A stretch of 64,000 nt of DNA from an uncultured Thermoleophilia bacterium (GCA_963707335.1 CAVPQD010000016.1:815-64814), one strand, 5' to 3'. Counted from the first letter of the stretch, positions 14,982 through 63,870 are shown. Notes: generated by a model not told the origin, from the letters alone. Numbers and translations are program-made.

Positions 14982-15005
14982 CTCGCTCACCCCCTTAACG
15001 TCGAA

Positions 15006-15035
15006 GGACAGGGCGATGTCTCCATCACCCTGTCC
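15006..15035 (-). promoter_or_regulatory. Hairpin between the riboswitch aptamer and the RBS; probable expression platform (terminator/anti-terminator element)
   Basis: Minus strand ggacaggg-tgatggagacatcg-ccctgtcc. It sits 43 nt 3' of the aptamer and about 10 nt 5' of the AAGGGGG RBS. Confidence 0.45.
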
Positions 15036-15078
15036 GCCGTGGGGCGCCCAGGCGTCCCGCGTCTTCAGGGGCCCGTCC

Positions 15079-15178: not shown

Positions 15179-15360
15179 TTCTGCCGGGCGTCCTCGGTTC
15201 GCGCCGAGCCTACCACCGGCGGCTGGGGGGCCGCAACGCAGCACGGCCGGGTGATGACGACCCTCGTCGTTCCTCCATACCCATATCCGGGCACGCCGTC
15301 GCGGGTGTATGGTGAGGTGGAGTCACCGTCTGTCATCGTCAGGCGGGAGGGGGTCCCACC

Positions 15361-33900: not shown

Positions 33901-35232
33901 CAAAGAAGCATGGACGAGCGCCTCAGCGTCCGTCTGCAACGCGTGTCCGGCGAGATCGGCGACGATCCCATCGAGCCATGCCAGACGCCGCGACAGCATG
34001 GCTTCATCCCTGCTGTCAGCCAGCGCCAGGGCGCCCACGGCGGCGGCGGCCTCGATAAACGCGAGCTCGCCCGGCTCATAGCTCGTGTCACTCGCGCTGT
34101 AGACCTCGAGCAGTCCGACCGGCTCGTTGCCCAGCCGCAGACCCGCTCTGACGACGCGGATGGCCTGGCTCGGCCCGCGGCGCGCCGGTGCGCCCGCCGC
34201 GGCGGGTTCGCTCTCCGGCAGGAGCCACTCGACCGGCTGTCCGCCGGCGATGATCGCCGTGAGTCCGTCGACAGCGGCGGCATCGTAGACAAGGCCCTCG
34301 GTGGCGGGCGTCTCGTCGGAAGCGGCCACGAGCAAGGTCACGGTCCCATCCGCAGGGTCATACGCCGAGATGTCGCATGCGAGAGCGCCGAGCTCGGTGC
34401 GCAGGCGTTCGCCGAGCGCACGCAGCAGGCGCAGCCGATCGATCGGACCGGCCGTGTCTGGCGGCGACACGACCACGGGTGGCGCCGGGGCGACCGACAG
34501 AGCCACGGCGGGATCGAGCGCCGGGACCTGATGCGGCGGCGCTCCGCGGTCGTCGCCCGCAACAAGGTCGCCGGCTTGGCGCGCAACGAATTCGGCGAAC
34601 GCGACGTTGGCGCCGGTGAAGGAGCGCGCTCCACCGCCCTCAGCCAGCTCCATGACGCCGGAGATGCGCCCCGCGCTGATCATCGGCAGCGCCAGGATGG
34701 CCCTGTGGCCGCGCCGGCGATAGGTCTCGGCAGCCGCCGGCGGCACCAGGTTCGTGGCGTCGAGATCGGCGATGACCATGCGTCTGCCCGTGCGCAGCAC
34801 CTCGCGGGCGACCCAGTCATCCTGCGCGCCGGCCGATCCGCTGTCGCGCGCCATGCCGTCGCGGCCGTAGTCGCCGGCGACGATGAAGGTGTGATCGCCC
34901 GTCGTCAACAGGAATCGGCAGGAGCCCACACCCACGCCGTCCGCAGCGAGACGCGCCATCGTGGAGAGCGGAGCCTGCAGCCGGGCCGGCTCCCAGCCCC
35001 CGGGGTGGCGCGCCTCGTTCGCGACGTGAAGAGGCGGGTCGCCGGCGGTCTGCGCGCAAAGGAGCGTCTCAACATCGCGACGACGGTACCGGCGGTGACC
35101 GCCGGGACTGCGGTAGCAGGTGAGCTTGCCTGCGTCGCTCCAGCGCCGCAGGGTGTTGATGCTGATGCCGAGGAGCGCCGCCGCCTCACTCAGGCGCAGC
35201 CAGCTATCTCCGTCCGCGCGACCGATCCTCAT
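27994..35232 (-). CDS. Giant multidomain c-di-GMP signalling protein (2412 aa): MerR-type HTH, about 10 tandem GAF domains, HD-GYP, an unassigned sensor-like domain, GGDEF, and a degenerate HD-GYP-like tail
   Basis: ATG 35232 lies 5 nt after GGGGAG. The HTH is LRLSEAAALLGISINTLRRWSDAGKLTCYRSPGGHRRYRRRDVETLL. GAF units recur about every 170 aa. The HD-GYP motifs are HDIGK (29779-29793) and HHHEHYEGGGYPDG. The GGDEF domain has GGEEF (28633-28647) with an RHVD I-site 5 residues upstream. The ORF is uninterrupted over 7.2 kb. Confidence 0.9.
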   Translation of the reverse strand: MRIGRADGDSWLRLSEAAALLGISINTLRRWSDAGKLTCYRSPGGHRRYRRRDVETLLCAQTAGDPPLHVANEARHPGGWEPARLQAPLSTMARLAADGVGVGSCRFLLTTGDHTFIVAGDYGRDGMARDSGSAGAQDDWVAREVLRTGRRMVIADLDATNLVPPAAAETYRRRGHRAILALPMISAGRISGVMELAEGGGARSFTGANVAFAEFVARQAGDLVAGDDRGAPPHQVPALDPAVALSVAPAPPVVVSPPDTAGPIDRLRLLRALGERLRTELGALACDISAYDPADGTVTLLVAASDETPATEGLVYDAAAVDGLTAIIAGGQPVEWLLPESEPAAAGAPARRGPSQAIRVVRAGLRLGNEPVGLLEVYSASDTSYEPGELAFIEAAAAVGALALADSRDEAMLSRRLAWLDGIVADLAGHALQTDAEALVHASLDALAEHPDICSCTLYHLQDARLVPTAWSPAGRPVPESLTLGAPAAAAEAIAGGATVAVTGGPGLDDATRRFLEDRGLTGATFRPLRYGDSVVGLLEAGTAQPAGLDSWRPILDVVADSLAAALGSGDVIDRLQRRNRDLALVIEAGLEDTARLSTDEVLHSVVRRLAELTHSPVADIYAVESDTLRALVSFDGGAFDDEWEGVVIPLSRYPCSRRAAETGEIAVAASLDDPVLGPDGRYSLEKWGYQSQLSMPLIAAGRVLGLVELSDYVPRDFDAELELIRGLGQVAAHALENATLFDQVERRSRILNELVDLGALASRSRDVDALVRRMAERLLRAIDAANCDIFQVSAEGLQCVASYDRSGFDDQPVGRILDPDSYPTLVTTMNAHEVLVINGYDDPKLSESERRIYREYGFASEVCIPLVVNDRLYGIIDMYDTRERDYTEYLGFLRSVGQTLAGALESSILFGQIEQRTNVLREIVELGAITSQTHDPQELLRTIAARLRDTIQAADCDIFTLQGDQLRCLVSADLNGFDERVVGDVLDVDRFPATAMAVHSGEPMIISSLGDPRLTAYERENYAAYGFQSELCIPLVVGESVIGLIDVFDTKPRDYAAFLDYLRSVGQMAAGAIENALLVDELERRNAALAELVELGRAVSGTVDLDDMVRSVGPRIVELMGAAGCQLFTLQHERLRCVLTYENGVYEDDYVGRPLDLDQFPSTRDALERREVLVIPSPDDERLSDYERELYRESASASEICVPLAVEDRVVGLLEVYDTRRRDYAEYRDFLVNAAQTLAGAFENALLLERLEQSNAMLNLLVESGLEFGATLELDPVLQSVARRLCAVTDAPNCDIYTIQDDEFRCVACVDKGTADASYVGTVYPLADLPLSSGAVRTQEPLLVTDIAEDARLSTHERDEDLRWGHRAKLELPLVSRGQVVGIAAIYDDHPRDFEHLDLLQSLAQVAANALANATLFERLDRSADRMALVTDVSYELSSSLDLGEVLRSTANRLCAVADMPMCDIYTLQGDTLVDVVSVADGKIDHEWQGRSFPLEGWATLRRAVETRQPVSIETLDDPLLLPDERALMESYGETSELAVPLISKERVIGVLELLDRRSPRSFSPEEIDTVSAVCRVAALAIDNANLVENLQLRNRENELLNEIAWATSASLNLPDIAAAAIDKLRRITPFDRGLVALRRDDQTFDVAYVTQPRSSAVPETLSIPMANGLLGRLRDEKVIALALPADLPAGFELPGVDELRSAALIALTKGTELIGVLSLGSLAPSTFETVDRHLLERTGTHLALAIDNARMYEDIKHLHLSNLKALSSALNAKDYYTLGHAARVAAYMVLLGEALGWPVDLLRQVEEAAYLHDIGKIGVSDRVLLKPSGLNAREWELMRQHPIFSADIIRSLFSDELVLGVRHHHEHYEGGGYPDGLAGEDIPLIARAMCVVDSYDAMSFRRPYRQGLSYEECLAELKRCRGTQFDPDMVDSFIAVLRRLAEGRQQARQVARDAAARVDPEEHARLRSPGDEKRPEYGHILEAFREVCVANPPTRFISSHVRIGKKTVVVVDSGQDGPGKPRIGDEVLTDDELVEVFAGRDLDVNVLFVDQWGVWISGTAPVLDQDGRVVAAVTADIPATEEIGEFEGLRSSVAQAFASMLHTAAVQAGRSEIEAITDGLTGLYNHRYFHERLSEEIERCLDQDGRVSLLFCDLDNFRAFNEVHGHSAGDEALRAVARVIESSIRHVDIAARFGGEEFAAILIDTDEQGALEVAERIRAGILGAKVAAADSLSISIGVASCPADAMFKEELIDKADWAMYLAKRRGRDQVMSFSAQHGTDTPEQAASVTSSYVAAMSELVAARDAYERRRRYAVAHLAQAVASELGLDGRDLRAMASLAETDSPRGLTGTGREVVELAVAYQAMVAERPYREQLSEAEALDELLNCPALRDDRHLAAAFERVLSGEVRSR

Positions 35233-35331
35233 GTGCTCCCCAGGAGTCGTGATGACTCTGAAGTTCATCAATTCTCAGGGAGAACCCTTGTCCTGTGTCG
35301 ACCCAGGTGAGCAGATTGGGGGAGACTTCGC

Positions 35332-39856: not shown

Positions 39857-40591
39857 TCAGGCCCGCTGATGCCGACGGACGACCTCCTGGGCCATGAACG
39901 ACGCCACTTCGAGCGGCGTGGTCCGCGGCCCGAAGCCGGCGTCGTAGCCGAGTTCCTTGGCGAACGCGTTGCTGATGCGCGGGCCGCCGACGATGAGCAC
40001 GAAGCGCTCGCGCACACCCTCGGCCTCGAGCAGCTCGATGAGCTGCGTGAGGTGCTGCACATGGATGTCCTTCTGCGTGACGATCTGCGACACGAGGATG
40101 ACGTCCGCGTGCCGCCCGAGCGCAGTCTTGAGCAGCTGCGCGCAGGGGATCTGCGAGCCCATGTTGAGCGCATCCATCTCCGGGTAGCGCTCCAGCCCGT
40201 AGTTCCCGGCGAAGCCCTTCATGTTCATGATGGCGTCGATGCCCACGGTGTGGGCGTCGCTCTCGATGGCGGCGCCGACGACGACCAGCTTGCGGCCCAG
40301 CTTCTCCTTGATGAGGCTGTTGATGGCGTAGTAGTCCATCTCCTCGACCTCAAGGTAGTCGCCTTTCACCTCGTCCGGGTCGATACCGACGTCCGTGCGC
40401 CCGTAGGCGACGTAGAAGGTGTACGAAGGGTCGATGGCTTTGCACTCGGCGATGCCCACGGTGTGGAAGCCGATCTTCTCCAGGAACTGCTTGCCCACGT
40501 CGGCGGCCTTGACCGAGTAGGGGACGGGCAGGGTGAAGGAGAACTGGACGACACCGTCATCACGAGTATCACCATACGGTCTAACTAGCAT
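39857..40591 (-). CDS. kamE: Beta-lysine (D-lysine) 5,6-aminomutase beta subunit, B12-binding
   Basis: ATG 40591 lies 5 nt after AAGGGGG and overlaps the end of kamD. Contains LVRPYGDTRDDGVVQFSFTLPV and the cobalamin-binding domain with the DxHxxG-like ESDAHTVGID. Confidence 0.85.
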   Translation of the reverse strand: MLVRPYGDTRDDGVVQFSFTLPVPYSVKAADVGKQFLEKIGFHTVGIAECKAIDPSYTFYVAYGRTDVGIDPDEVKGDYLEVEEMDYYAINSLIKEKLGRKLVVVGAAIESDAHTVGIDAIMNMKGFAGNYGLERYPEMDALNMGSQIPCAQLLKTALGRHADVILVSQIVTQKDIHVQHLTQLIELLEAEGVRERFVLIVGGPRISNAFAKELGYDAGFGPRTTPLEVASFMAQEVVRRHQRA

Positions 40592-42204
40592 CAGTGCCCC
40601 CTTCACTCGTCGGACCGGGGCCGGCGGCGGGTCCCACGGGTGCGCCGCTCATGCGCCCGTCGCGCAGCGCCGCGAAGAACGGGTTGAAGTAGTCGTCGCT
40701 GACCTTGAAGACGCCCTCGTAGCCGCGGCCCCCCCGCGGGTCGCGCTTCACGTCGGCGAACTCGCCGTCCTCCAGGGCCTTGAACAGGCCGATCTCCGTG
40801 ACGTGTTCGAGCTGCTCGACCGCTTTCCCGAGCTGGTCGTTGGCCCGCCGCTCGATGACGCCGCCTGCCTTGAAGGCGACCTCGTCGGCGAGGTCGCGCG
40901 CCCCTTCGAACACGTACTTTGCGTTCTTGATGGAGAGGTAGCGGTCCTGGAGCAGAGGGGTGTGCAGGGCCTCCGTGAGCATGCCGAGGAGCATGATCTC
41001 CTGGCCCGTGAAGATGCCGGTGAAGTTGAACATGCCGTCGATGATGTGCCCCTGGAAGATGTCGCCGGGCATGTACTTGGTGGGCGGCATGTACTTGAGC
41101 GGATAACCGGGGAACAGTTGCCGGATGAGCTGCGCGTCGGCGATCTGGTAGACGACCTGATCGGGCATCGAGGGGTCGATCTCGAACGCATGCCCCAGGC
41201 CGATCTGCCACGGCTCGAGGTTGGCGCGCAGGGCGAAGGCCTCGTTGATGAAGTCCGAGCTGACGACTGTGTAGCCCTTCTCGAAGGCGTCCGCCGTAGT
41301 CAGATAGTTGTCCTCGCCGGTGTTGATGATGATGCCGGCACGCGCGTTGATGAGTCGCGACAGGTACTGGTCGACGAACGTGCGCTGCATGTTGATGTTG
41401 CGGAAGATGATCCCGTACATCGAGTCGTTCAGCATCATGTCCAGCCGCTCGAGAGCGCCCATGGTCGCGATCTCGGGCATGCACAGGCCGCTCGCGTAGT
41501 TACACAGGCGGATGTAGCGGCCGAGCTCGTCGCCGACCTCGTCCAGGGCCGCACGCATGAGCCGGAAGTTCTCCTGGGTGGCGTACGTGCCGCCGAAGCC
41601 CTCGGTGGTCTCGCCGTACGGCACGTAGTCCAGCAGGCTCTGCGCCGTGGTGCGGATGACTGCGATCACGTCCGCACCGGCGCGGGCCGCGGCCTTGGCC
41701 TGCTCCGCGTCCTCGTAGATGTTCCCGGTGGCGACGATGACGTACACGTATGGCTTGCGCGGCTCTCCCGTGTGCGCGACAAGCTCGTTGCGTCGCCGGC
41801 GCACCGCGTCGACGCGGGAGACGCCCTCGCGGGCGAGCTCCCCGGCGCGCGCCTCTGCGGCGGCGCGCCGGTCCGCCGGCACCGGCTCGAGCGTCAGTTC
41901 GCCGGCCGACACGCCCTGAGCCACCTGCTGTGCGGTCTTGCCGGTCGCGCAGCATGAGGTCGACGAAAGGCCGCATGATACCGCCGGGCAGCAGATCGCG
42001 CGCGTGCTCGACCACGACGTTCACGAGCGGCACGTCGATCTCGTTGACCCCGACGATGCCGAGAAGGCGCAGCGTGGCGCGCTCGGTCGTGTCCGTCGTG
42101 TGCTCCTCGATGTGCTGCTGGATGTCATCGGCGATGGCGTCCGCCGCCGCCCGGGCGCGTTCGACCAGGCCGGCGTCCAGCTGGAGCGCGTTGTTCACTT
42201 CCAC
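40581..42204 (-). pseudogene. kamD: Beta-lysine (D-lysine) 5,6-aminomutase alpha subunit, one frameshift near 41945
   Basis: The N-terminal 90 aa (MEVNNALQLDAGLVERARAAADAIADDIQQHIEEH...RPFVDLML) are in one frame. GKTAQQVAQGVSAGELTLEP...TGNIYEDAEQAKAAARAGADVIAVIRTTAQSLLDYVPYG...INTGEDNYLTTADA is in the next. Confidence 0.85.
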
Positions 42205-42218
42205 ACCACCCTCTTTCG

Positions 42219-43352
42219 TCAGGGAGAGACCGAGTCGGGCGGGTTCGCCGCGCCGGCCGGCGCGGCGAACCCGTTGACGACGTCGTAGACCGGGACGCGT
42301 CCGGCAACGGCGCCGGCGACCGCGTTGAAGAAGAGCTTCGCTTGATAGGGCTGGGGCACGCGGAACGGGTTGGCCGTCACGGCGAGCACGCGCAGCGGCG
42401 TGAGCACCTCGAGCGCGATACCGCGCCGCCGGAAGCGGCTCACGGTCGTCGCCGGCAGGACCAGGACGGTGGGGTCGCGGACGACGACGCGCAGTTCGCG
42501 GCGCGGCGGCAGGACACGCGTGAAGTCGTCCACGAACTCCTGCGTGAGGGCGCCGCCGATGAAGAGCGTGCGCGTGCGGCGGCGCTCGACCTCGCGGGCT
42601 ACGGACACGCCCTCGCCGACAACGGTGGGCATGTCGAGGCGCTCGATGTCGCCGTGATCGTCCACTGAGACGGCGCGGGCCGTCTCGAGGCCGGCGGCCT
42701 CGACGAGCCCGCGTGTCCCGGCGTCCGTCGCCGGGAGCAGCAGCATGTCCAGCGTCGCGACAGTGGTCGCGAGCACGTCGTCCAGGCTGTCGCCGACCAT
42801 GCCGCCGGTCGCCATCACGACTCCCTCGCTGACGCGCGGGGAGGCGCTCCCCAGGCGGTTGATGGCGCCGTCGACGAGCACCTGGTCGGCGCCGAGCGCC
42901 TGCAACCGTTGGATCGTGTACCGCAGCTCCGCGAGCGTCGTGGGCCCGCTGACCTCGACCTTTCCTTCACCATCGGCACGGCCGATGAGCACCCGGCCGA
43001 GCGGCGTATGGAACGGCAGCTCCTCGAGGACGTGCATGTCGTAGCGCGAGCGGTCGAGCGAGCCCTGCGTCGTCGCCACGAGCGTGCCGGCGGGCGGGGC
43101 GATGCTCGGCTTGGCGAGGCCGGTGAGGTGGTCCGTGCGCTCGCCGTCGAGACCGAGCGACGTGAGGCCGAACCGCCGGCCGCAGTTGGCCATGAGGCTG
43201 TTCACCACGGTGGTCTTGCCGGCGTTCTTCACCAAGCCGATCACGGCCAGACTGCGCTGCGGCGAGGCGTCGACCAGCTCGTAGAGGCCGGCGACGGGCC
43301 CATCGGCCACGCCGGCCTTCTCGCGGATGGGAGTGACGCGGTCGCGGCCCAT
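42219..43352 (-). CDS. P-loop NTPase-like protein of unknown function, encoded immediately upstream of kamDE
   Basis: 377 aa. The Walker-A-like motif is GLVKNAGKTTVVNSL. Also contains VLVDGAINRLGSASP. The stop lies 15 nt from the kamD start, and the start overlaps the regulator stop. Confidence 0.6.
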   Translation of the reverse strand: MGRDRVTPIREKAGVADGPVAGLYELVDASPQRSLAVIGLVKNAGKTTVVNSLMANCGRRFGLTSLGLDGERTDHLTGLAKPSIAPPAGTLVATTQGSLDRSRYDMHVLEELPFHTPLGRVLIGRADGEGKVEVSGPTTLAELRYTIQRLQALGADQVLVDGAINRLGSASPRVSEGVVMATGGMVGDSLDDVLATTVATLDMLLLPATDAGTRGLVEAAGLETARAVSVDDHGDIERLDMPTVVGEGVSVAREVERRRTRTLFIGGALTQEFVDDFTRVLPPRRELRVVVRDPTVLVLPATTVSRFRRRGIALEVLTPLRVLAVTANPFRVPQPYQAKLFFNAVAGAVAGRVPVYDVVNGFAAPAGAANPPDSVSP

Positions 43353-44089
43353 CAGCGCCGGCTCCGGCCCCGGTCCGCGGCCGCGCGCGGCCCTCGGCCG
43401 TCCTCGTCGCCGTGCCGGATCTCCTTGAGATAACTGAAGATGGTGTAGCGCGAGAGGTCCAGGGCCTTTGCGACCTGCTCAGCGGAGCGCTTCACGAGGA
43501 AGGCGCCGCGCTCCTCGAGGCGCTTGACGACCTCCATCTTCTCCTCTCGCGACATGGCTGCGGGTGTCTTGCCCATCTCGTTGAGGATCTTCGCGATCAT
43601 GCCCGCGACGACGTCGCGGATGTCGCCGGCGAAGATCTCCTCCTTCTCGGGCACCGCCCCGTCGCCGAGGCGCTCGACGGCCGTGAGGTTGGCGAGCGTG
43701 CGCTGGGCTTGGACGAGCTCGGAGATGTCGATGTTGAGTCCCAGGATGCCGTAAGCCTCGCCCTCCTCGTCCCGCAGCGTCACGGCGAGCGATCTGAGGA
43801 TCTTGCCGTCGCGCGAGGTGACGTAGAGGCGCACGTCCTGCCCCTCGTCCACATGGCGAAGGCTGCGCAGCATGAGGTCCGTGGGTACGTCGCCGACGGT
43901 GCGCCCCGTGACGGAGCCGTTCTCGATGGCGACGATGGAGTGGGGAAGCTGGGCGATGTCGTGCAGCACGACCTCGCAGCCCGGGCCGAACATCTCGGCA
44001 AGGCCCTTGACCACGGGCAGCAGCGCCCGCATGCGGGCGTCGAGTGGCTGCTTGACCAAGCGACCCTCCTGTCGCGGCTGGAAAGACAT
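43352..44089 (-). CDS. YheO-like PAS domain plus HTH transcriptional regulator
   Basis: LLPVVKGLAEMFGPGCEVVLHDIAQLPHSIVAIENGSVTGRTVG is the YheO-like part. The C-terminal HTH is AEQVAKALDLSRYTIFSYLKEI. The start is ATG 44089, or alternatively 44032. Confidence 0.75.
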   Translation of the reverse strand: MSFQPRQEGRLVKQPLDARMRALLPVVKGLAEMFGPGCEVVLHDIAQLPHSIVAIENGSVTGRTVGDVPTDLMLRSLRHVDEGQDVRLYVTSRDGKILRSLAVTLRDEEGEAYGILGLNIDISELVQAQRTLANLTAVERLGDGAVPEKEEIFAGDIRDVVAGMIAKILNEMGKTPAAMSREEKMEVVKRLEERGAFLVKRSAEQVAKALDLSRYTIFSYLKEIRHGDEDGRGPRAAADRGRSRR

Positions 44090-44124
44090 GGCATACCGAG
44101 GCGAATGGACGGCCTGGGACACTT

Positions 44125-44154
44125 GGTATACACCGCCGGACTCGGGCTTGTCAA
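44125..44154 (-). promoter_or_regulatory. Candidate sigma-A/sigma-70 promoter of the regulator-kam operon
   Basis: On the minus strand: T-tract, TTGACA (44149-44154), an 18-nt spacer, then TATACC (44125-44130). It lies about 35 nt upstream of ATG 44089. Confidence 0.4.
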
Positions 44155-44228
44155 AAAAGGTGGGAGCCCTGTCGCGTTTAGTGGGAGCAGCGCATCCTGT
44201 CTGCGGCGCGGGGCGAGGGAGCACGAAC

Positions 44229-51396: not shown

Positions 51397-51579
51397 GTCC
51401 TCCGCCACTTCGCGCCGCCATCTCAGCCTTTCGCGGTCCCGCGGCACCGCGCGGGCACCCCTTCTGCGACGGCGGCTGGTTTGGCCGGTCGAAGGGGCAC
51501 GGAACAACCATCCCGGGAAGACGTTTACGTGCGCTCGCCTGCGACCCGACGGCGAGCCTTGCGGAGTAGGAGGTCTCTC

Positions 51580-53661
51580 ATGCTACCGACGTTGCGCCAG
51601 CGCAAGGTCGCTCGCGTGCTGTTCGACGAGTATCACGGTGAGGCGTGGTCGATCCGGGCCGATGTCGTCCGCGCCATGCGCCCCGACCACCCGGAGGCCT
51701 CGTCCTACGGGCGGGCCGCCGCCGAGCTGGCCGAGCGCGACTTCGAGGTGGCGGCCCTCACCGAGCCGCTGAGCGCGGCGGCGCTCGTCGACGCCGATGT
51801 GCTGGTGATCGCTCATCCGAGCGAGGCCAAGTGGGAACGCACCGTCGGCGGCGGATCGCCGGTGTTCTCCGACGACGAGCTGCGCGCCGTCGCCGACTTC
51901 GTGCAGGACGGCGGCGGGCTCGTCGTGCTGGGCGAGACCGAAGAGGACAAGTACGGCAGCAACCTCAACGAGTTGCTCGCCCCCTTCGGCGTGCGCCTCG
52001 CCAGCACCACGGCTTTCGACTTCAGCGACGCGACGATGCCGACCTGGGTCCCGGCGCAGGCCGCGCTCGGGCTCGACGACCGCTCGCTGCTGCATCGCGT
52101 GCGGGAGGTGAAGCTGTACCGGGCCGGCACGCTCGAAGCGGACCATGCCGGCGCGATCGTCCTGCAGACCGGGCCCTCGGCGGATCCGCCGCTGGCCGGG
52201 CTGCTCGCCGCCGCGACGTACGGCGACGGCCGCGTCGTCGTCGTGGCCGATTCCGACCTCTTCGGCGACGACCACCTGCCGGACCACGATCACCGGCAGC
52301 TGTGGCTCAACGTGGTCTACTGGGCGGCGCTGGCAGCCTTCCGGTCGCCGCCTGAGCGGATCGTCTCCGAGGCGGCGACCCATCCGGCCTGGCTGCGCCT
52401 GCGTGACGAGACCAACGCGCTGCGGTCGATGGAGGGACCCAAGGGAGAGGTCGACCTGTCGAAGCACGATGGCGAGGAGGTGCGCGCCCACGTCGACGCC
52501 ATGGTCGACGCCATCGGCGAGCTGGCGCCGCTCTTCCCACATGAACAGGACTACCTCGCGCAGGTACAGCGCGACCTGCGCGCCTGGGTCGACGGCGGAT
52601 GCGGCAAGCCGGATTTCATGGCGTCGCTCGCGCTGTTCCGGCCCGAGCAGCACCGCATCGACGGCATCCAGCACCTTGTCGTGTTCCCCATGTACACGCC
52701 CAACGGCTCGCCCGACACGCGCTTCGAGGCGCTGATCGTGCGCACCCCGTGGCCGGAGTTCGTCGACACGCTCGAGCGCACGATGTTCGACAACCAGAAG
52801 TACGTGCCGGTGCAGCTGGTGAGCTATACGAGCGGCTATGAGAGCGAGTGCGCGGTGCTCTTCCCCGAGACGGTGAGCGTCGCGACGCGGCCCACCAACA
52901 ACTTCGGCGGCATCTTCTGCGACCGGGAGAGCGCGCGCTTCCAGTCGTCGACGGCGAGCGGCGCCGAGGTACTCCGCATCGTGCTGCCGCCCGACGCGCA
53001 GGCGCTCGTCGCCAACGGCGACCTGGCGCGAGAGACCTACATCCTGTGGGACATGATCCACGACCGCTGGCACAGCCACGGCGACCTGCCCTTCGATCCG
53101 TTCATGATCCGCCAGCGCCTGCCCTACTGGATGTACTCGCTCGAGGAGCTGCGCGTGGACATGGCGACCTACGGCTCAGCGGGCGAGCTCGTCCGCCAGG
53201 GCTTCCCGTTCGCCCGGTACGTCCAGTACGCGATCCTCTTCGACCGCATCCTGCGCTTCCCCATCACCGGGAACCGGGTGCGCAACTACGACGGCCTGGG
53301 CGGCCAGCTGCTCTTCGCCTATCTGCACCGCACCGGTGTGGCGCAGTGGACCGACAACCAGTTGCTCATCGACTGGGACCGGGTGGAGGACGGCGTGGCG
53401 GAACTGCGCGAGCAGGTGGAGGAGCTCTACCGGCGCGGCATCGACACGAGCAAGGTGTCGTACTGGATCGCAGCGCACGACCTCGTGGCCGAGTACGTCC
53501 ACCCCAACGTGGCCTCACAGTGGACCAGCGAGAGCCGTGTGTACTCGGACGAGTCAGATCCCAAGGCATGGATCGACCGGGTGCTGGACGACGAGTTCCC
53601 GCTGAGCGTCTTCTACGAGCAGCTCAAGAAGAAGCTGGCCGACGAGCCTGCTCATGTCTGA
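51580..53661 (+). CDS. Large conserved hypothetical protein (693 aa): N-terminal DUF4350/GATase1-like fold, C-terminal approx. 450-aa domain of unknown function (possibly DUF6421, from memory)
   Basis: RBS GGAGTAGGAGG then ATG 51580. The N-terminal region has DVLVIAHPSE...DFVQDGGGLVVLGE. The C-terminal region has the His-rich motif WDMIHDRWHSHGDLPFDPFMIRQRLPYWMYSLEELRVD. The stop overlaps the ltaE start (ATGTCTGA). Confidence 0.75.
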   Translation: MLPTLRQRKVARVLFDEYHGEAWSIRADVVRAMRPDHPEASSYGRAAAELAERDFEVAALTEPLSAAALVDADVLVIAHPSEAKWERTVGGGSPVFSDDELRAVADFVQDGGGLVVLGETEEDKYGSNLNELLAPFGVRLASTTAFDFSDATMPTWVPAQAALGLDDRSLLHRVREVKLYRAGTLEADHAGAIVLQTGPSADPPLAGLLAAATYGDGRVVVVADSDLFGDDHLPDHDHRQLWLNVVYWAALAAFRSPPERIVSEAATHPAWLRLRDETNALRSMEGPKGEVDLSKHDGEEVRAHVDAMVDAIGELAPLFPHEQDYLAQVQRDLRAWVDGGCGKPDFMASLALFRPEQHRIDGIQHLVVFPMYTPNGSPDTRFEALIVRTPWPEFVDTLERTMFDNQKYVPVQLVSYTSGYESECAVLFPETVSVATRPTNNFGGIFCDRESARFQSSTASGAEVLRIVLPPDAQALVANGDLARETYILWDMIHDRWHSHGDLPFDPFMIRQRLPYWMYSLEELRVDMATYGSAGELVRQGFPFARYVQYAILFDRILRFPITGNRVRNYDGLGGQLLFAYLHRTGVAQWTDNQLLIDWDRVEDGVAELREQVEELYRRGIDTSKVSYWIAAHDLVAEYVHPNVASQWTSESRVYSDESDPKAWIDRVLDDEFPLSVFYEQLKKKLADEPAHV

Positions 53662-57216: not shown

Positions 57217-58114
57217 GAAACGTGCGCTCGGCAAGGGCCTCGGAGCGCTCATCGGCGAGGGCAAGGCGGCCCTCGACAGGTCCGGCTCCGCCGGCGGTGA
57301 GGGCCGACTGCGCGAGGTGCCGCTCGATCAGATCGCCGTGAACCGGCGCCAGCCGCGCCACGCGTTCTCCCAGGAGGAGCTGGAGGAGCTGGCGGCGTCC
57401 ATCAAGGCGCTCGGCGTGGTGCAGCCGATCGTCGTGCGGCCGCTGGCCGAGGCAGTCGTGCCCGGCGCGCCCACCCGGTTCGAGCTGGTCGCCGGCGAGC
57501 GGCGTCTGCGCGCCGCGAAACTCGCCGGCCTGGATCACATCCCCGCGCTCGTACGCGCCGTGGGCGAGATCGAGTCGCTTGAGATCGCCTTGGCCGAGAA
57601 CGTCGCCCGCGAGGACCTGAACAGCATCGAGGAGGCGCAGGCCTACGCGGCGCTGGTGGACGAGTTCGGGCTGACGCACGAGCGCGTCGCGGAGCTCGTC
57701 GGGCGCAGCCGGGCGGCGGTCACCAACCTGCTGCGCCTGCTCGACCTGCCGGACGACGTGCAGCGCCTCGTCGAGACGGGCGAGCTGAGCGAGGGGCACG
57801 GGCGCGCGCTGCTGGCGCTGCCCGACCACGGGCAGCGCCGCAAGGTCGCGCGCCTGATCGTCAGCCAGGGCCTCAGCGTGCGGCAGGCGGAGGCCCTCGT
57901 GAAGCAGCTGTGCGAGGCGCCGGCCGAGGCCGCCTCGCAGTCGCGGCCGTCCCCCAAGGCCGAGTACGCCGACCTCCTGGACGAGCTCTACGGACTGCTG
58001 GAGGCGCCCGTCCGCATCCGCACCGGCAAGCGCGGCGGGACCATCCAGATCGCCTTCAAGAGCCAAGCGGAACTGGAGCGCCTCGTCGAGTTGCTGCGCT
58101 CGCTCGGCGCCTGA
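57209..58114 (+). CDS. parB: Chromosome partitioning protein ParB/Spo0J
   Basis: GTG 57209 overlaps the end of parA. Contains KRALGKGLGALI, NRRQPRHAFSQEELEELAASIKALGVVQPIVVR, GERRLRAAKLAG, and the HTH EEAQAYAALVDEFGLTHERVAELVGRSRAAVTNLLRLL. Confidence 0.95.
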   Translation: MTEKRALGKGLGALIGEGKAALDRSGSAGGEGRLREVPLDQIAVNRRQPRHAFSQEELEELAASIKALGVVQPIVVRPLAEAVVPGAPTRFELVAGERRLRAAKLAGLDHIPALVRAVGEIESLEIALAENVAREDLNSIEEAQAYAALVDEFGLTHERVAELVGRSRAAVTNLLRLLDLPDDVQRLVETGELSEGHGRALLALPDHGQRRKVARLIVSQGLSVRQAEALVKQLCEAPAEAASQSRPSPKAEYADLLDELYGLLEAPVRIRTGKRGGTIQIAFKSQAELERLVELLRSLGA

Positions 58115-58128
58115 CGCGGGTCGATCCG

Positions 58129-58151
58129 GGCGCGCGCCGAGGGCGCGCGCC
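58129..58151. terminator. 10-bp GC hairpin between the convergent parB and DUF2149-like genes
   Basis: ggcgcgcgcc-gag-ggcgcgcgcc followed by tt. Confidence 0.5.
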
Positions 58152-58162
58152 TTCCCATTACC

Positions 58163-58735
58163 TCAGGGGTTCGGCGCCGGCGTGATCGTCACGCCCGAGC
58201 TGGGTGTCGTGGGCGTGACGGTCGGCGCCGGCGTCAGTGTCGGGGTCGGGGTAGGCGGCAGGGGCGTCGTGCCCGGCGCGGGCGTGATGCCCGGTGCCGG
58301 AGTGACGCCTGGGGTGGTCGTCCCGCCCGAGAGCGCGGTCGCCGGCACGTACACGATGGTGCCGTCCGCCAGCTCGTAGAACGACCCGACCAGCGAGCCG
58401 ACGCCGCTCACCTGCGGCCCGGACGTGACGTCCAGCTGCTTGATCTGGTCACCATCCTTCACGACGACCTTCATGTCCGGCGTTCCGGGGTCGGTGACGA
58501 TCGTGACCTTCTCGCTGGTCAGGATCCCGGAGATCCCGAGCCCGGCCAGGGCCATGACGAGGAAGCCGACAGCCAGCACCAGGGCCGTGTCCCAGAGATT
58601 GACGAGGCCGTCCAGGGGATCGCCGTTGCGGTCGACACGGCTGATGCGCCGCCGCTTCATGTATTTCATGCGGCGTCCGGGCTCGTCCTGGACGGAGCCG
58701 AGGAAGCGCAGCGAGCTGTCGTCCATCAGGGGCAT
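58163..58735 (-). CDS. DUF2149-like single-pass membrane protein (ExbD/TolR-position partner) with a Pro/Thr-rich C-terminal tail
   Basis: Contains RRRISRVDRNGDPLDGLVNLWDTALVLAVGFLVMAL (basic N-terminus plus one TM). A small beta-rich ectodomain follows, then a TPGVTPAPGITPAPGTTPLPPTPTPT linker. The start lies 6 nt after the upstream stop. Confidence 0.7.
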   Translation of the reverse strand: MPLMDDSSLRFLGSVQDEPGRRMKYMKRRRISRVDRNGDPLDGLVNLWDTALVLAVGFLVMALAGLGISGILTSEKVTIVTDPGTPDMKVVVKDGDQIKQLDVTSGPQVSGVGSLVGSFYELADGTIVYVPATALSGGTTTPGVTPAPGITPAPGTTPLPPTPTPTLTPAPTVTPTTPSSGVTITPAPNP

Positions 58736-58741
58736 GGCGCC

Positions 58742-59800
58742 TCAGCGAGGCTCGGTGGACTCCGGCGCGTCGTCCGCCTTGGGCACATCGACGGGGCCGA
58801 GCTCGGCGAAGGGATCGTCGTCCGTGCGCCAGCTCCGGTCGGGGTCGTCGAAGGACAGCGGCGGCGAGCCGGCCAGGGTGGTCTCCGGTTCGGCCAGCCC
58901 CTCGACGGGCGCGTCCGCTGCGGCATCGGCGGACAGCTGCACGTGCTCGGCGGACGGCGGCTGCTCGACGCTGCCCTGTCCGCCCGGCGGCGCGCTTGTG
59001 AGAGCGTCCAGTCCGGCCGCAGCTCCCGCGTCCGCGTCAGGCTCCATGCCCGCCGCCATCGCCGCGGCGGACAGCTGCGACGTGACTGCGTCGTCCTCGG
59101 GGACCTCTTCATACGCCACGCCCGGCTGGGCGTCCCACCGGCCGTTCGTGTGCCGGCGCCGTCCCGATCCCATACGGGTGTCGTCGCCCTGAAGCAGCTC
59201 GAGGAGGTACTCCATGTCGCTGATGTCCTGCGAGTACATGCGGTCGCGCACGATGCTGACCACGAACGACACACCGCCGATGAGCAGGCCGAGCACCGTG
59301 ACCGAGAACGCCGTGACGAGGTTCTCTGAGAGAGCGGCGATGTCGCCCTCGGCAAGGCCCACGAGCGCCGGCGACAGCGGGATGAGCGTGCCCATGAGTC
59401 CCAGCATGGGGCCCAGGCGCGTGAGGATGCGGGTGCGGTTGAGCCGCCTCACGGAGTAGAACTCGTACTCCTGCAGGAGCTTGAGCGGCTTGGCCTCCAG
59501 GCGCTCGCCCTGGTAGTTGCGGATGAGGTCGTAGAGAAAGCGCACCACGACGATGGAGTAGGTGTTCTCCTGCAGGTACCTGTAGGCGGTGCGCGGCTTG
59601 CCGTCGGCGAAGGCTGTGCGGGCGCGCAGGGCGCGGGCCTGAAGGGCATCAAGATCGCGATAGCGGAAGCGCAGCCAAGCCTCGTACAGCATGGCGCCGA
59701 ACTCGATGAGCACCCACACCAGGCAGACGACGACGGCGATGAGCACCGGCCAGAGGAGCGCGCTCGAGATGTCGTAGATCGTGCGCTGAAGGTCGTTCAC
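58742..59800 (-). CDS. MotA/TolQ/ExbB-family proton-channel protein with an approx. 170-aa acidic, low-complexity C-terminal tail
   Basis: GTG at 59800. TM1 is LLWPVLIAVVVCLVWVLIEF. The conserved channel core is ILTRLGPMLGLMGTLIPLSPAL...AFSVTVLGLLIGGVSFVV. The start lies 4 nt after the upstream stop. Confidence 0.8.
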   Translation of the reverse strand: MNDLQRTIYDISSALLWPVLIAVVVCLVWVLIEFGAMLYEAWLRFRYRDLDALQARALRARTAFADGKPRTAYRYLQENTYSIVVVRFLYDLIRNYQGERLEAKPLKLLQEYEFYSVRRLNRTRILTRLGPMLGLMGTLIPLSPALVGLAEGDIAALSENLVTAFSVTVLGLLIGGVSFVVSIVRDRMYSQDISDMEYLLELLQGDDTRMGSGRRRHTNGRWDAQPGVAYEEVPEDDAVTSQLSAAAMAAGMEPDADAGAAAGLDALTSAPPGGQGSVEQPPSAEHVQLSADAAADAPVEGLAEPETTLAGSPPLSFDDPDRSWRTDDDPFAELGPVDVPKADDAPESTEPR

Positions 59801-59804
59801 GCGA

Positions 59805-61593
59805 TCAGCTCCGCGCCGGTTTGATGATGTCGCCGGACTTCGCGAACGCGTCCCTGGTGCGTTCCCAGCCGGAGCCGCCACCGGGCAGCTCCTCGCCCGC
59901 AGAGGCGCCGGCCATGGCGTCCTCGCGGCGATGCAGCAGGTAGTACGTGAGTGCTGCGCCCAGCGGAAGCATGGCGAGCAGGGTACCAGCAAGGAAGCCG
60001 GCTGAGCTACCGCCATCGTCGCCCGAGCCGCCGGCACCGGCGCCCGGCGACGGCGAGCTGATGGGCGCGCCGACGATCGGCGACCCGCTCGGCGACGGCG
60101 ATGGGCCGTAGTAGCTGGGCGTCACTGTCGGCGTAGGGTACAGCGTCGTCGTCGTGGACGGGGTCACGGTGGGCGTGGCCGTCGGATGGTACGTGGCCGG
60201 TGGGATCACCGGTGTCGTCGGTGATGTGGTACGTGGGCGTCGGCGTGGGTGAGATCGGGATCGGCACTGCGACGGTGAAGCTCCGCGTCACTTCACGCTC
60301 GTTGCCCGCGTAGTCGCGGATGACGATCTTGTAGGTGTGCTTGCCGTTGGCCACGTTCTTGAGCTGCAGGTGCAGCCCGTAGCGGCCCACGTCAGCGGGC
60401 TTGGTCTTGTTGGCGTTGTCCACGTACAGGCGCACGGCAGCCGCATTGATGCCGGTGCCGCCCTTGCCGTCGCCGTAGGTGGCCCGGATGAGCACGATGC
60501 GCGTCGTCTTGAACGTGGCGCCGCCCTTGGGGGCGACGGTGTCGAAGTGCGGGCGGTAGACGAAGGCCTTCACCGCCGGGGGCTTGTGCGCCGGATAACC
60601 CGTGAAGTTCTGGCCGGCCAGGGCCACGAGGGCGTGACCCGTGACCGCGACCGGGGTGATGAGGGTCCCCGGCCGGGCGGCGTAGGCGCCGCGCTTGACC
60701 TGCAGGCTCCGCAAGGCGCTGAGCGGGGTCTTCCCGGACGATGTGCGCCAGCGGCCGGCCGCGGGGTTCTCACCGGTCACGTCGATGGCCTGGATGGCGA
60801 ATGCCGTGGCTTCGGCGTCCAGGCGCGTGCTGCTGGTCGTCTGGTCGGGGAAGCCGCCGTCCGAGCGCTGGACGCCGTCGAGGTAGTCCAGCGCACCCTG
60901 CACGAGCGCGCTGACCGAGCTCGTCCCGCCGGCGCGCAGCGCCTGGATGGCGAGCGCGGTGTCCTCTGTGTCCGAGCGACTGTCCGGGCTCAGGCCGAAG
61001 CCGCCGTCTGCGTTCTGCTGCGTGCGAAGCCACGCCCCGGCCGCCGCGAAGTTCTCGTTGTCGATGGCGAGGGAGTTCATCGCCAGGATGGCCCAGCAGG
61101 TGGTGCGCACCGCCTTGAACGTGCGCGTCGAGGACGACGGCGAGAAGCTGCCCTCCGTGTCGCTGCCGGGGGCGACGTCCTGATAGGAATACAGCTTGGT
61201 GAGCAGGTCGACGGCGGGCGTGCCGGCGGCGTACACGTAGTCCTCGCGCCCGCCGGCCATGTAGGACATGATCATCAGGGAGTAGTACTGGGGCGGGTTG
61301 AGACTCGCGGTGGCCGCCGTCTCCTGGTTGGTGGCCTGCAGGGCGCTGATCGGGCTCTTGCCCGCGTGCGTCCAGGCGCTCGAGCCCATTCGCTCGCCGG
61401 TGGCGACCGCGCCCAGGATGACCCACCCCGTCGTGCTCGGGCTGCCGAACCCGCCCGTGGTCAGTACCTGCTGCGAATGGAGGTAGTCGAGGCCTCGAGT
61501 GATGGACGGTGGCCGATCGGCGAGGGCGAGGGCCGGCACGATCGCCAGAAGGGCGAAGGCGACGGCCGGTGCCAGCCAGCTTCTCCTGCTCAT
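59805..61593 (-). pseudogene. Secreted, C-terminally anchored protein with prenyltransferase/squalene-cyclase-type alpha-alpha toroid repeats plus an Ig-like domain; one frameshift near 60205
   Basis: RBS GGAGG then ATG 61593. The signal peptide is MSRRSWLAPAVAFALLAIVPALALA. Three repeats occur: LDYLHSQQVLTTGGFG, AWLRTQQNADGGFG and LDYLDGVQRSDGGFP. After the shift come a PT-rich linker, the TM helix FLAGTLLAMLPLGAALTYYLL, and a short cytoplasmic tail. Confidence 0.75.
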
Positions 61594-61752
61594 CTCAATG
61601 ACCTCCACGCCCGCTGCGGGAGGCGGGCAAAGCTGCCTCATGCTACCAAGCTGGAGCGACACCGCAAAGCCCGCGACGTGCAGGGGTTCTGGCGCGGCCC
61701 GCGCCCGGCCTGGCCAGAGCCCGGGCGCGACGGTATATCCTAGTGAGCCGAC

Positions 61753-62751
61753 ATGGGCAGCTTCCTCTCACTCGTGATCCCCGTGTTCAACGAAGCCGAC
61801 AGCCTCGAGCCGCTGGTCGGCGAGATCGACGAGGCCCTGGCGGCGTCGCACCAGCCGTACGAGATCGTGTTCATCGACGACGGCTCCAGCGACGGCTCGT
61901 TCGACGTGATGCGGCGTCTCGCCGCGGACCGCGCGGACGTGCGCGCCGTCAAGCTTCGCCGCAACTTCGGCAAGTCGGCGGCGCTGTCCCACGGCTTCGC
62001 CGCCAGCCGCGGGGATGTGGTCGTCACGCTGGACGGCGACCGCCAGGACGACCCCGCCGAGATCCCGCGACTCATCGCGCCGCTCGAGCAGGGCTACGAC
62101 CTGGTGTCCGGCTGGAAGCAGAGCCGTCAAGACCCCGTCTCCAAGACGGTGCCGTCGCGCCTGTTCAACTGGACGGTGCGCCGCACCACCGGCATCCCCC
62201 TGCACGACTTCAACTGCGGCCTCAAGGCCTATCGCCGCGATGTGGTGGACACGATCAGCGTCTATGGCGAGCTGCACCGGTACATACCCGTGGTCGCCGA
62301 GCAGGCCGGCTTCCGCGCCACCGAGGTGAAGGTGAGCCACCGCCGGCGCACCGCCGGCCGCTCCAAGTACGGCTGGCGGCGCTTCATGCGTGGCTATCTG
62401 GACCTGCTCACGGTGCTCTTCCTCGGTCGCTACCAGCACCGGCCCCAGCATCTCTTCGGAGGTCTGGGCACCACGCTGATGCTCGTCGGGCTCTTGATCG
62501 AGCTGTACCTCACCATCGACAAGCTGGCTTTCGGCAATCCCATCGGGCAGCGGCCGCTGTTGTTGCTGGGGGCGCTGCTCATCATCGTGGGCGTGCAGCT
62601 GCTGTCGCTGGGCCTCATCGGCGAGCTCATCGCCAACTCGCGGGCGCGGAGCGGTCCCGACCCGGCGCAGGTGGCGCTCGTCGTGGAGGGCGCCGCGGCG
62701 CGCTCCACGGTGCCGGTCCACGAGTCCGCCGGCCGCGCCGACGGGCCGTGA
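61753..62751 (+). CDS. GT2-family polyprenyl-phosphate glycosyltransferase (DPM1/GtrB-like) with two C-terminal TM helices
   Basis: Contains LSLVIPVFNEADSL, FIDDGSSDGS and LDGDRQDDPAEI (DxD). The C-terminus is hydrophobic. Confidence 0.88.
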   Translation: MGSFLSLVIPVFNEADSLEPLVGEIDEALAASHQPYEIVFIDDGSSDGSFDVMRRLAADRADVRAVKLRRNFGKSAALSHGFAASRGDVVVTLDGDRQDDPAEIPRLIAPLEQGYDLVSGWKQSRQDPVSKTVPSRLFNWTVRRTTGIPLHDFNCGLKAYRRDVVDTISVYGELHRYIPVVAEQAGFRATEVKVSHRRRTAGRSKYGWRRFMRGYLDLLTVLFLGRYQHRPQHLFGGLGTTLMLVGLLIELYLTIDKLAFGNPIGQRPLLLLGALLIIVGVQLLSLGLIGELIANSRARSGPDPAQVALVVEGAAARSTVPVHESAGRADGP

Positions 62752-63870
62752 CCCGCGCCGTCGCCTACTTCGGCACGTACGACCCCGGCTATCCCCGCAA
62801 CGCGGTCCTGCTTGCCGGGCTGCGTGAACTCGGCGTGGCCGTGCAGGAGTTCCGGTCGCCGCTGCCGGACGTCCCCGCGGCCGAGATGGCGACGGCGGCC
62901 GGCGCCGCCCGCCTGGCGGCGGGCCTGGCGGCCGCACACCTGCGTCTGCTGGCACAGCACCCAAGCGACCTGCGGATCGACGCCGTGATCATCGGCTACC
63001 CCGGCCACTTCCTCGTCCCCTTCGGCCGGCTGCTGGCCGCCTACCGGCGGCGCGCGCCTCGTCTTCGATCCGCTTGTGTCGCTTTGGGACACCTTCGCCG
63101 GCGACCGCGGCCTCGTCGCGGCGGGCGGCTGGAAGGCCGCCGCGGTGCGCGGCGTCGACCGCGTCGCCTTCCGCCTGCCCGCTCTGATCCTGGCGGACAC
63201 GTGGGCGCACAGCGCCTACTACCAGGAGGTGTACGGCGTCGCGCGGGACCGGCTCGCGGTGGTGCCCGTCGGGGCGCTGCCCGAGCCGCGCGCGGACGGC
63301 GCCGCGCGGGAGCTCGCGGACGGCGAGCCGCTCACCGTCTTCCAGTACGGCAAGTGGAGCCCGCTGCACGGCGCGGACGCGGTGCTTGACGCTGCGGGCC
63401 TGCTGCGCGGCGAGCCGGTCCGCTTCGTGCTGGCCGGCGAGGGACAGCTGTCGGCGCGGCTCAAGGATGCCATCGCCGAGCGCGGGCTGCACAACGTGCA
63501 GTGGCTCGGCGCCCTGACGATGGCCGAGCTGCGCGATCAGACGCTGGCCGCCGACGTGTGCCTCGGCGTGTTCGGCCGCTCCGACAAGGCGGGGCGCGTC
63601 GTGCCCAACAAGGTCCACGACGCGCTGGCCTGCGGCCGGCCGACGATCACGGCGGACTCGGCCGGCGCGCGCGAGCTGCTGCACGATGGCGAGAACGCCT
63701 TGCTCGTGCCGGCCGGCGATGGCACGGCGCTCGCCGCCGCCGTCGTGCGGCTGCGCGACGAGATCGAGCGCCGCCGGCTCGGCATGGAGGCGTTGGCGCT
63801 GTATCGGCGCCGCCTCACGCCTGCCGTCGTGGCCGGCGGACTGCTGGCGGCCCTGGAGGCGAGCGCGTGA
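62748..63870 (+). pseudogene. GT4-family (GT-B) glycosyltransferase with a frameshift near 63050
   Basis: GTG overlaps the GT2 stop (GTGA). The N-terminal part is VAYFGTYDPGYPRNAVLLAGL. After the shift come LVFDPLVSLWDTF..., FQYGKWSPLHG and KVHDALACGRPTITADSAGARELL (the EX7E-like region). Confidence 0.75.

Follow-up and report, generated by a model that had tools for sequence, protein, structure and literature searches.

A toroid, ExbB-like and DUF2149 gene trio of Thermoleophilia as the candidate distal module of a corrinoid uptake system

Motors of the ExbB/ExbD type are thought to serve outer-membrane energising, and in E. coli the TonB-dependent uptake of vitamin B12 depends on btuB, which is under the control of a cobalamin riboswitch. 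Here we describe a three-gene locus that places a divergent pair of this kind behind a stalked surface protein, in hosts whose monoderm status is presumed from taxonomy. The locus lies in a 64,000-nucleotide stretch of DNA (hereafter the window) from an uncultured Thermoleophilia bacterium (GCA_963707335.1, CAVPQD010000016.1:815-64814) and encodes an alpha/alpha-toroid protein, a channel protein of the MotA/TolQ/ExbB family (ExbB-like) and a DUF2149 protein. We propose, with moderate confidence, that the trio is the distal module of an uptake system for corrinoids, the vitamin B12 family, in Thermoleophilia (Actinomycetota), in which the motor pair would act on the stalked toroid.

The closest described counterparts of the motor pair are HmuU and HmuV of the Bacteroidota heme operon hmuYRSTUV, a MotA/ExbB protein and a DUF2149 protein (PMC11681262), whose role has been left unassigned or only assumed (PMC11681262, PMC12583661, PMC12094164). 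A B12-box has been reported between hmuR and hmuS (PMC11681262). The trio resembles this system in having a MotA/TolQ/ExbB gene followed by a DUF2149 gene in the same adjacency and in its link to tetrapyrroles, and one locus (L157, described below) has a DUF2162-ExbB-DUF2149 form right behind cobalamin riboswitches. However, the Bacteroidota are diderm and the Hmu pair presumably energises HmuR, a TonB-dependent receptor, whereas no gene for TonB or for an outer-membrane receptor dependent on it adjoins the trio in the window or in its annotated relatives L001-L005 (GTDB loci beyond these five were screened for named queries only). The trio also differs in its stalked toroid, in that the Thermoleophilia loci, like the window, have neither the CobN-like HmuS nor DUF2162/HmuT beside the pair, and in the Pro/Thr tail added to the DUF2149 protein of the window.

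In L. sakei, the operon of an energy-coupling factor (ECF) transporter includes two secreted accessory proteins related by HHpred to the alpha and beta domains of transcobalamin (10.1101/864751). Relatives of the window similarly combine EcfS, EcfT and EcfAA' with DUF4430 (beta-like) and toroid (alpha-like) proteins in one operon, a likeness to L. sakei Lsa1836-1840 and ECF-CbrT; no ExbB-like/DUF2149 pair is described in those systems, whereas here the toroid is stalk-anchored and the window locus is without ECF genes. Transcobalamin, intrinsic factor and haptocorrin share with the toroid protein the alpha6/alpha6 toroid fold class, combined with a DUF4430-type beta domain, and this pairing recurs as a fusion in a wall protein of L157 and as operon partners elsewhere, while the window has the toroid only. 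We draw the transcobalamin analogy because the toroid pairs with DUF4430 and because of the L. sakei precedent; there is no specific match in sequence or structure, each half is a protein of its own, and the toroid protein has an Ig-like domain and an anchor besides. With the TonB-ExbB-ExbD system that serves, e.g., BtuB of E. coli, the trio has in common an ExbB-family channel, a putatively equivalent acidic residue where the transmembrane (TM) helix of the single-pass partner begins, a long proline-rich spacer in another single-pass protein and, in relatives, a link to riboswitch-controlled B12 uptake. It differs from that system in lacking an adjoining outer membrane receptor and the C-terminal domain of TonB, in a partner that is DUF2149 and not Pfam ExbD, in the opposite topology of the toroid protein (ectodomain N-terminal, TM helix C-terminal) and in the importer of its relatives, which is an ECF transporter. 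The literature yielded nothing on DUF2162, and it linked ExbB, ECF transport and the cobalamin riboswitch nowhere beyond one general review. No description was found of a Ton-like motor joined to an ECF B12 importer in presumed monoderms; the component families are known. The original prediction, made from the sequence of the window alone, had called the trio uncharacterised, which holds for the combination but not for the pair, named as HmuU/HmuV, or for transcobalamin-like proteins, described in L. sakei.

The minus strand of the window carries the three genes one behind the other (positions 61593-58163) in the order toroid, ExbB-like, DUF2149, with gaps of 4 nucleotides from the toroid stop to the ExbB-like start and 6 nucleotides from the ExbB-like stop to the DUF2149 gene. 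The tight coupling originally noted is thus confirmed, and Pfam agrees with all three family calls made at that time (alpha/alpha toroid, MotA/TolQ/ExbB, DUF2149). A scan of GTDB with the DUF2149 alignment as query, one genome per species, returned 80 loci, nearly all labelled uncultured Thermoleophilia or Actinomycetota. In 69 of the 80 species loci, order and orientation of the three genes are as in the window, and neighbouring genes overlap or lie a few nucleotides apart; two loci are cut by contig ends and nine have the pair with other partners. Because order and orientation recur so widely, the arrangement is not due to chance. Identity to the window proteins is 44-66% at trio-only loci (35-53% for the toroid alone). 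To judge from this conservation the trio is a unit under purifying selection rather than a relic, and the lack of conservation as a unit that the original prediction had named as a danger is not seen. In two Thermoleophilia metagenome-assembled genomes (MAGs), those of L044 and L011, the ExbB-like/DUF2149 pair occurs a second time, with no toroid gene next to it (L046, L067).

The trio forms the distal end of an ECF operon in 15 GTDB loci and 24 metagenome loci. In L032, L077 and L080 it closes a nine-gene operon of co-directional, overlapping genes, with no glycosyltransferase (GT) or parB neighbours. The operon order is DUF4430, DUF4430 lipoprotein, CbiQ/EcfT, double ABC ATPase, ECF S component (EcfS; DUF6580/ECF-ribofla_trS), toroid, ExbB-like and DUF2149. 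The first DUF4430 protein carries SLH domains in L077 and L080, and that of L012 gave no real match among PDB sequences. Rfam places a cobalamin riboswitch (RF00174, cut-off 31.5 bits) at the operon head in L032, L077, L080, L082, L012, L015, L022, L038, L043, L045 and L047; the ECF-linked GTDB loci that retain upstream DNA are preceded by one in 11 of 11 cases, at 60-87 bits. Beyond the riboswitches of L032, L077, L080 and L082, an nhmmer profile built from these four found eight, and for the seven of them that were put to Rfam it agreed, at 72-87 bits. A shorter riboswitch operon, in L082, consists of a secreted protein, toroid, ExbB-like and DUF2149. The same locus has a second, divergent cobalamin riboswitch before a gene for a 621-residue toroid-like protein with an ASH/Ig-like C-terminal domain (4660-6592, minus strand).

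Metagenome loci were found by a scan seeded with the S component, and those long enough to judge were sorted with our own hidden Markov models (HMMs). EcfS, toroid, ExbB-like and DUF2149 occur together in 24 loci, the toroid is lacking in 10, an EcfS-toroid fusion occurs without a motor in seven, and a separate toroid without a motor in two. A riboswitch lies upstream in 15 of the 18 loci whose upstream DNA extends for 6.5 kb or more, with Rfam confirmation in L088, L162, L150 and L120. The fusions (L162, 8052-10031; L132, L140, L150, L151, L164, L131) have, besides the S component, the ectodomain of the toroid and a TM helix at the C-terminus, and Pfam reports DUF6580 and SQHop_cyclase_C in that of L162; all four with upstream DNA (L140, L150, L162, L164) lie behind cobalamin riboswitches and DUF4430 genes. 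As predicted polypeptides, they show the toroid to be physically tied to the transporter. The energised capture of corrinoids had been put forward as a speculation, together with a proposal to look for B12 riboswitches in the gene neighbourhoods; riboswitches are indeed present in the orthologous operons and metagenome loci, not in the window itself, and the idea gains support from the riboswitch-headed ECF operons that end in the trio.

B12 control of the pair also extends beyond these loci. L157 (1274-18900) is Clostridia-like, as its GC content of 0.42 and its CWB2 wall-binding domains indicate, and contains six cobalamin riboswitches. Two stand before a CWB2-anchored wall protein of 1345 residues, in which CBM_X2 and DUF4430 domains accompany the toroid and after which come DUF4430 and EcfT/AA'/S; another heads BtuF and FecCD; and two in tandem stand directly before DUF2162, MotA_ExbB and DUF2149, with a Big_2-like surface protein next. 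Among the loci examined, DUF2162 was seen only here. Because the tandem riboswitches precede the pair, the motor would be under B12 control in a second presumed-monoderm phylum.

The ECF-linked and trio-only versions share one chromosomal site, between a GT2 glycosyltransferase gene and parB. In eight genomes the riboswitch-ECF block sits between the GT2 and toroid genes, so the full operon and the bare trio occupy the same site. Synteny with GT2, GT1, DUF2079, LPG_synthase_TM and Mannosyl_trans2 is kept in 52 trio-only loci. In a neighbour-joining tree of the ExbB-like cores, computed without support values, the ECF-linked loci are basal and the trio-only loci fall in derived clades, which suggests that the lineage of the window secondarily lost the riboswitch-ECF 5' part or moved it elsewhere.

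The same pair adjoins importers of other kinds. A Conexibacter MAG (L081, 3783-10300) has a heme-type cluster of Peripla_BP_2, FecCD, an HtaA-domain protein, a PKD anchored protein, ExbB-like and DUF2149. In L083, L084 and L085 (~5800-12800), from Solirubrobacterales, Nocardioidaceae and Mycobacteriales MAGs, the pair lies inside an oxyanion-type ABC operon, in the order TupA-like PBP_like_2 protein with Ig domains, PKD protein with linker and C-terminal TM helix, the pair, and BPD_transp_1; two such permease genes are present in L083 and one was called in each of L084 and L085, and L083 also has an ATPase and a MerR-TOBE regulator. Whatever the nutrient system, the gene just upstream of the pair encodes an ectodomain (toroid or PKD-domain protein), a low-complexity linker, a C-terminal TM helix and a basic tail. 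Because this architecture recurs, the motor may act through the TM helix and tail of a stalked protein.

The toroid gene of the window (Table 1) starts with an ATG at 61593, with GGAGG 9 nucleotides upstream. Pfam matches its product to SQHop_cyclase_C (8.5e-8), Prenyltrans (5.9e-7) and Big_7 (1.6e-4), and the toroid region bears three Q..(D/T)GGF repeats. AlphaFold2, run with 61 homologues, gave a model with a pLDDT of 93.4, in which residues 29-325 form the toroid and residues 349-441 a beta-sandwich. The 283 homologues measure ~600 residues where intact, and the columns of the TM helix and tail are near-invariant (alignment A2). In Foldseek, the best matches of the model are the toroids of squalene-hopene cyclase (SHC), drimenyl-diphosphate synthase and the farnesyltransferase beta subunit (TM-scores ~0.40-0.47), and profile matches include SsDMS (1e-22) and SHC (1e-15). 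NCBIfam returned sub-threshold matches only (SCO2321 family membrane protein, for the toroid; a folate-family ECF S component; TupA), and PADLOC models, which cover anti-phage defence and Zorya-like MotAB systems, matched none of the three proteins. The repeat motifs and the toroid fold are common to class II terpene cyclases and prenyltransferase beta subunits; the toroid protein differs from them in being extracellular and single-domain. An SHC-type class II terpene cyclase was considered and rejected: the DxDD acid motif is not conserved (D-T-E-D-T-A in the window; CEDTA, CVNTA, VDQTA, DVDDTA and others in the family), and the model has one toroid with an Ig domain, as opposed to the two-toroid (beta-gamma) active site of that type. 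On these two grounds the toroid is not an SHC-kind enzyme, and no terpenoid cluster lies near the trio, so that neither the catalytic motifs nor the genomic setting named in the original prediction as signs of a terpene cyclase were found. A twin-arginine signal is not claimed from the RR of MSRRSWL, which is not kept in all relatives.

The reading frame of the toroid gene breaks at ~60232 (+/-15), and tblastn likewise divides the gene between two frames; the original prediction had recognised a frameshift but put it at ~60205. Close and distant orthologues are single open reading frames of 583-615 residues, and their C-termini are near-identical to the second frame of the window (...LLAMLPLGAALTYY..., GGGSGWERTKD.FAKSGDIIKPARS), in which the GC content at third codon positions (GC3) is 0.84. 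The GT1 glycosyltransferase gene (62760-63837, plus strand), ~3 kb away, is frameshifted too, at ~63048 in comparison with intact orthologues of 372 residues. The nearest public contig (L001) has many broken genes, and the related genomes are mostly metagenome-assembled. An alignment of the linker DNA with L001 to place the indel was uninformative, the linker being hypervariable and L001 frameshifted too. Because the downstream frame is conserved and the neighbouring GT1 gene is also frameshifted, the lesion is likely an assembly indel or very recent, and not an old pseudogene. The dead gene that the original prediction had named as a danger is thus not what relatives with intact copies, the conserved downstream frame and the GT1 frameshift point to.

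The ExbB-like gene starts with a GTG at 59800, and an identical public protein (P0241) has the same start called. The protein belongs to PF01618 (MotA_ExbB; 29.2 bits, cut-off 22.9), a match shared by 120 of 120 homologues among the matches listed. Its profile finds ExbB as best match in the PDB, weakly (E=0.06), with the TM2-TM3 region aligned to ExbB, and it has the ExbB/TolQ topology of TM1, a large cytoplasmic loop and a TM2-TM3 hairpin. Four residues are invariant in 40 ExbB-like sequences: G137 and T138 in TM2, S166, and T168 in TM3. The acidic tail is variable except for two invariant motifs at its end, LxFDDPxMxW and DDPFAxLGPxD, which look like docking motifs for a cytoplasmic partner; both are missing from the Gaiellales-type short versions (L077, L080).

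The DUF2149 protein matches PF09919 at 73.3 bits (cut-off 27.1) over profile positions 1-91 of 92. A conserved cytoplasmic motif leads into its TM helix, and its small, beta-rich ectodomain is followed by a tail that ends in the conserved GVTITP (GVT(L/I)TP in the family). D39 is conserved without exception, D42 in 90% or more of the sequences. By hhalign, motif and TM helix fall on ExbD residues 8-39 with D49 opposite the essential D25, a weak match (E=0.003, probability 10%) that serves as a lead only. The profile returned nothing but low-complexity noise from PDB sequences. The family is small: among 1.84 billion representatives, 558 clusters match at E<=1e-3.

Table 1. Positions of the trio, its domains and its upstream region in the window
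Feature	Position	Strand	Basis or remark
Divergent intergenic region, toroid gene/GT2 glycosyltransferase gene	61594..61752	.	No cobalamin riboswitch
Toroid gene, first frame, 454 residues	60232..61593	-	Pfam, AlphaFold2, Foldseek, homologues
Toroid protein: signal peptide	61593-61519	-	
Toroid protein: alpha/alpha toroid	~61509-60619	-	
Toroid protein: Ig-like domain (Big_7/Big_13)	~60549-60271	-	
One-base frame change at start of Pro/Thr linker	60217..60247 (approximate)	-	Three-frame translation, orthologue reading frames, tblastn
Toroid gene, second frame	59805..60230	-	Three-frame translation; alignment A2
Toroid protein: Pro/Thr stalk	60230-60003	-	228 nucleotides, ~75 residues; no stop inside frame
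Toroid protein: TM helix	59996-59934	-	
Toroid protein: cytoplasmic tail	59933-59808	-	42 residues (...GGGSGWERTRDAFAKSGDIIKPARS)
Toroid gene: stop	59807-59805	-	
MotA/TolQ/ExbB-family channel, 352 residues	58742..59800	-	Pfam PF01618, invariant residues, public protein P0241
ExbB-like: TM1	59758-59684	-	Residues 15-39; followed by cytoplasmic helical loop
ExbB-like: TM2	59416-59354	-	Residues 129-149
ExbB-like: TM3	59320-59249	-	Residues 161-184
ExbB-like: acidic disordered tail	59188-58745	-	~150 residues
ExbB-like: LxFDDPxMxW	~58830-58860	-	
ExbB-like: DDPFAxLGPxD	58787-58819	-	
DUF2149 protein, 190 residues	58163..58735	-	Pfam PF09919, alignment A1, hhalign
DUF2149: motif RRR...DRNGDPLDGxVNLxD	58633-58589	-	
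DUF2149: TM helix	58588-58520	-	
DUF2149: ectodomain	58507-58343	-	
DUF2149: Pro/Thr tail	58342-58166	-	

In the proposed mechanism, the exported toroid would be held at or beyond the cell wall on its Pro/Thr stalk, anchored by the C-terminal TM helix with its cytoplasmic tail. It would represent the alpha-like half, and the DUF4430 proteins of the full operon the beta-like halves, of a transcobalamin-like ligand clamp divided between proteins, and the two together may clamp a corrinoid at the wall. The ExbB-like protein and single-pass DUF2149 would form a proton-driven motor of the HmuU/HmuV type, acting on the TM helix and stalk or tail of the toroid as ExbBD acts on TonB. Its pull could release the tightly bound corrinoid or hand it to the ECF S component, with import by the ECF transporter at the expense of ATP. 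In the lineage of the window, only the trio would be left at the site, with a start region of its own and its partners presumably encoded elsewhere. The ligand in the window genome, the stoichiometry of the motor, its proton coupling and the force on the toroid are what we infer. That the genome uses B12 follows from the lysine 5,6-aminomutase genes kamDE, which were originally read as a B12-dependent aminomutase and are confirmed at 39857-41924. The two gene products, KamE (OAM_dimer and B12-binding) and KamD (Lys-AminoMut_A), are adjoined by a YheO-like PAS-helix-turn-helix regulator (39857-44224, minus strand).

Independent of the mechanism, dozens of species have kept a divergent motor pair, which in relatives is under riboswitch control and tied into an ECF importer for vitamins. 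If the motor does act on the toroid, this would show how thick-walled bacteria recover B12 from very high-affinity binders, give a role to DUF2149, DUF2162 and HmuTUV, and add an energy-coupling step to ECF transport. A more general version of the proposal, which we offer tentatively and hold to be somewhat doubtful, is that of a monoderm Ton analogue: a proton-driven pair that pulls a stalked receptor (toroid for B12, PKD-domain protein for other nutrients) and strips its ligand for an ECF or ABC importer. If true, it would amount to an uptake route driven by both the proton-motive force and ATP, and would explain HmuTUV of Bacteroidota and the archaeal DUF2149 clusters.

Several observations weigh against corrinoid uptake by the trio. 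In the window, a cobalamin riboswitch was matched neither by Rfam at the gathering threshold over the whole 64 kb nor by Rfam at E<=10 on 61300-62000, nor by the nhmmer riboswitch profile, and no ECF or DUF4430 genes were found within the 64 kb; similarly, all seven sampled trio-only loci have no cobalamin riboswitch, DUF4430 or ECF genes within 10 kb on either side. The toroid resembles generic SHC/prenyltransferase toroids rather than transcobalamin specifically, and transcobalamin and intrinsic factor are absent from the best 50 Foldseek matches and from the HMM matches. The toroid gene is, moreover, frameshifted in this assembly. As for the motor, DUF2149 has no Pfam ExbD match and its PDB profile search returned no ExbD, TolR or MotB, D49 is replaced in two of 37 aligned sequences (alignment A1), and its AlphaFold2 model is poor (pLDDT 48.9), with only the TM helix confident. 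Since ECF and toroid systems occur without a motor (nine loci, seven of them the fusions), the motor is not obligatory for such uptake, and since the pair also adjoins heme-type and TupA-like oxyanion importers it is not B12-specific. Finally, a homologous ECF system of L. sakei has been tied by experiment to heme, not B12 (10.1101/864751).

The L. sakei result bears on the alternative that the trio handles a different ligand, i.e., heme, another tetrapyrrole or a metal chelate, at least in the riboswitch-less, trio-only lineage. HmuU/HmuV belong to a heme operon, the L. sakei transporter whose accessory proteins are transcobalamin-like affected heme uptake, the pair in L081 follows an HtaA-domain protein and a FecCD/Peripla_BP_2 transporter, and the window has no riboswitch. 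We nonetheless regard this alternative as unlikely: the riboswitch counts given above (11/11 ECF-linked GTDB loci, 15/18 metagenome loci with enough upstream DNA) speak for B12, and no heme- or iron-related genes flank the trio.

A second alternative accepts the pair as a motor but not its action on the toroid; it would instead drive the opening of a path through the wall or S-layer, or the lateral movement of receptors, with the toroid as one of several cargo-binding neighbours. The association of the pair with PKD-domain anchored proteins and other ABC importers, its occurrence with DUF2162 and no adjacent toroid in L157, and the GVT(L/I)TP tail of DUF2149, which could dock to wall components, can be read in this way. 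However, the gene before the pair always encodes an ectodomain, a linker and a C-terminal TM helix, and the TM helix and tail of the toroid are conserved together with the pair, which makes such a motor rather improbable.

Prenyltransferase-type toroids bind isoprenoids, and a role in envelope biogenesis may be envisaged in which the toroid binds polyprenyl-linked glycan intermediates of the neighbouring glycosyltransferases while the motor energises, in Tol-like fashion, processes outside the membrane. This would fit the conserved GT2/GT1/DUF2079/LPG_synthase_TM/Mannosyl_trans2 surroundings of the 52 trio-only loci and the riboswitch-less window. It is made very unlikely by the divergent orientation of GT2, the riboswitch-ECF block that separates GT2 from the toroid in eight genomes, the trios of L032, L077 and L080 that have no GT or parB neighbours, and the EcfS fusions, which tie the toroid to a transporter. 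Least probable of all is a vestigial, inactive remnant, which could appeal to the frameshift at ~60232, the missing ECF part of the window locus and the published view that incomplete Ton systems of monoderm Actinobacteria are 'likely non-functional' (PMC12204202), but which is contradicted by intact orthologues with many invariant residues in dozens of species and by the undecayed downstream frame (GC3 0.84, tail intact), the GT1 frameshift and the broken L001 genes pointing to indel-prone assemblies.

The trio of the window is flanked by the GT2 glycosyltransferase gene, read divergently from the toroid gene, and by parB. Nothing useful came from scanning 57900-61900 for promoters and terminators, and no sigma-70-like site was found before the toroid gene. 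Elsewhere in the window, a glycine riboswitch (50.5 bits; 15074-15183, minus strand) precedes what looks like a run of minus-strand genes (10392-15116). A giant protein of 2425 residues is encoded at 27994-35271 (minus strand), with an N-terminal MerR-type helix-turn-helix, at least seven GAF domains, an HD-type domain (HD/HD_5) and GGDEF. A DUF4350 and DUF6421 protein of 726 residues (51481-53661, plus strand) keeps its synteny with parAB/rsmG across Thermoleophilia.

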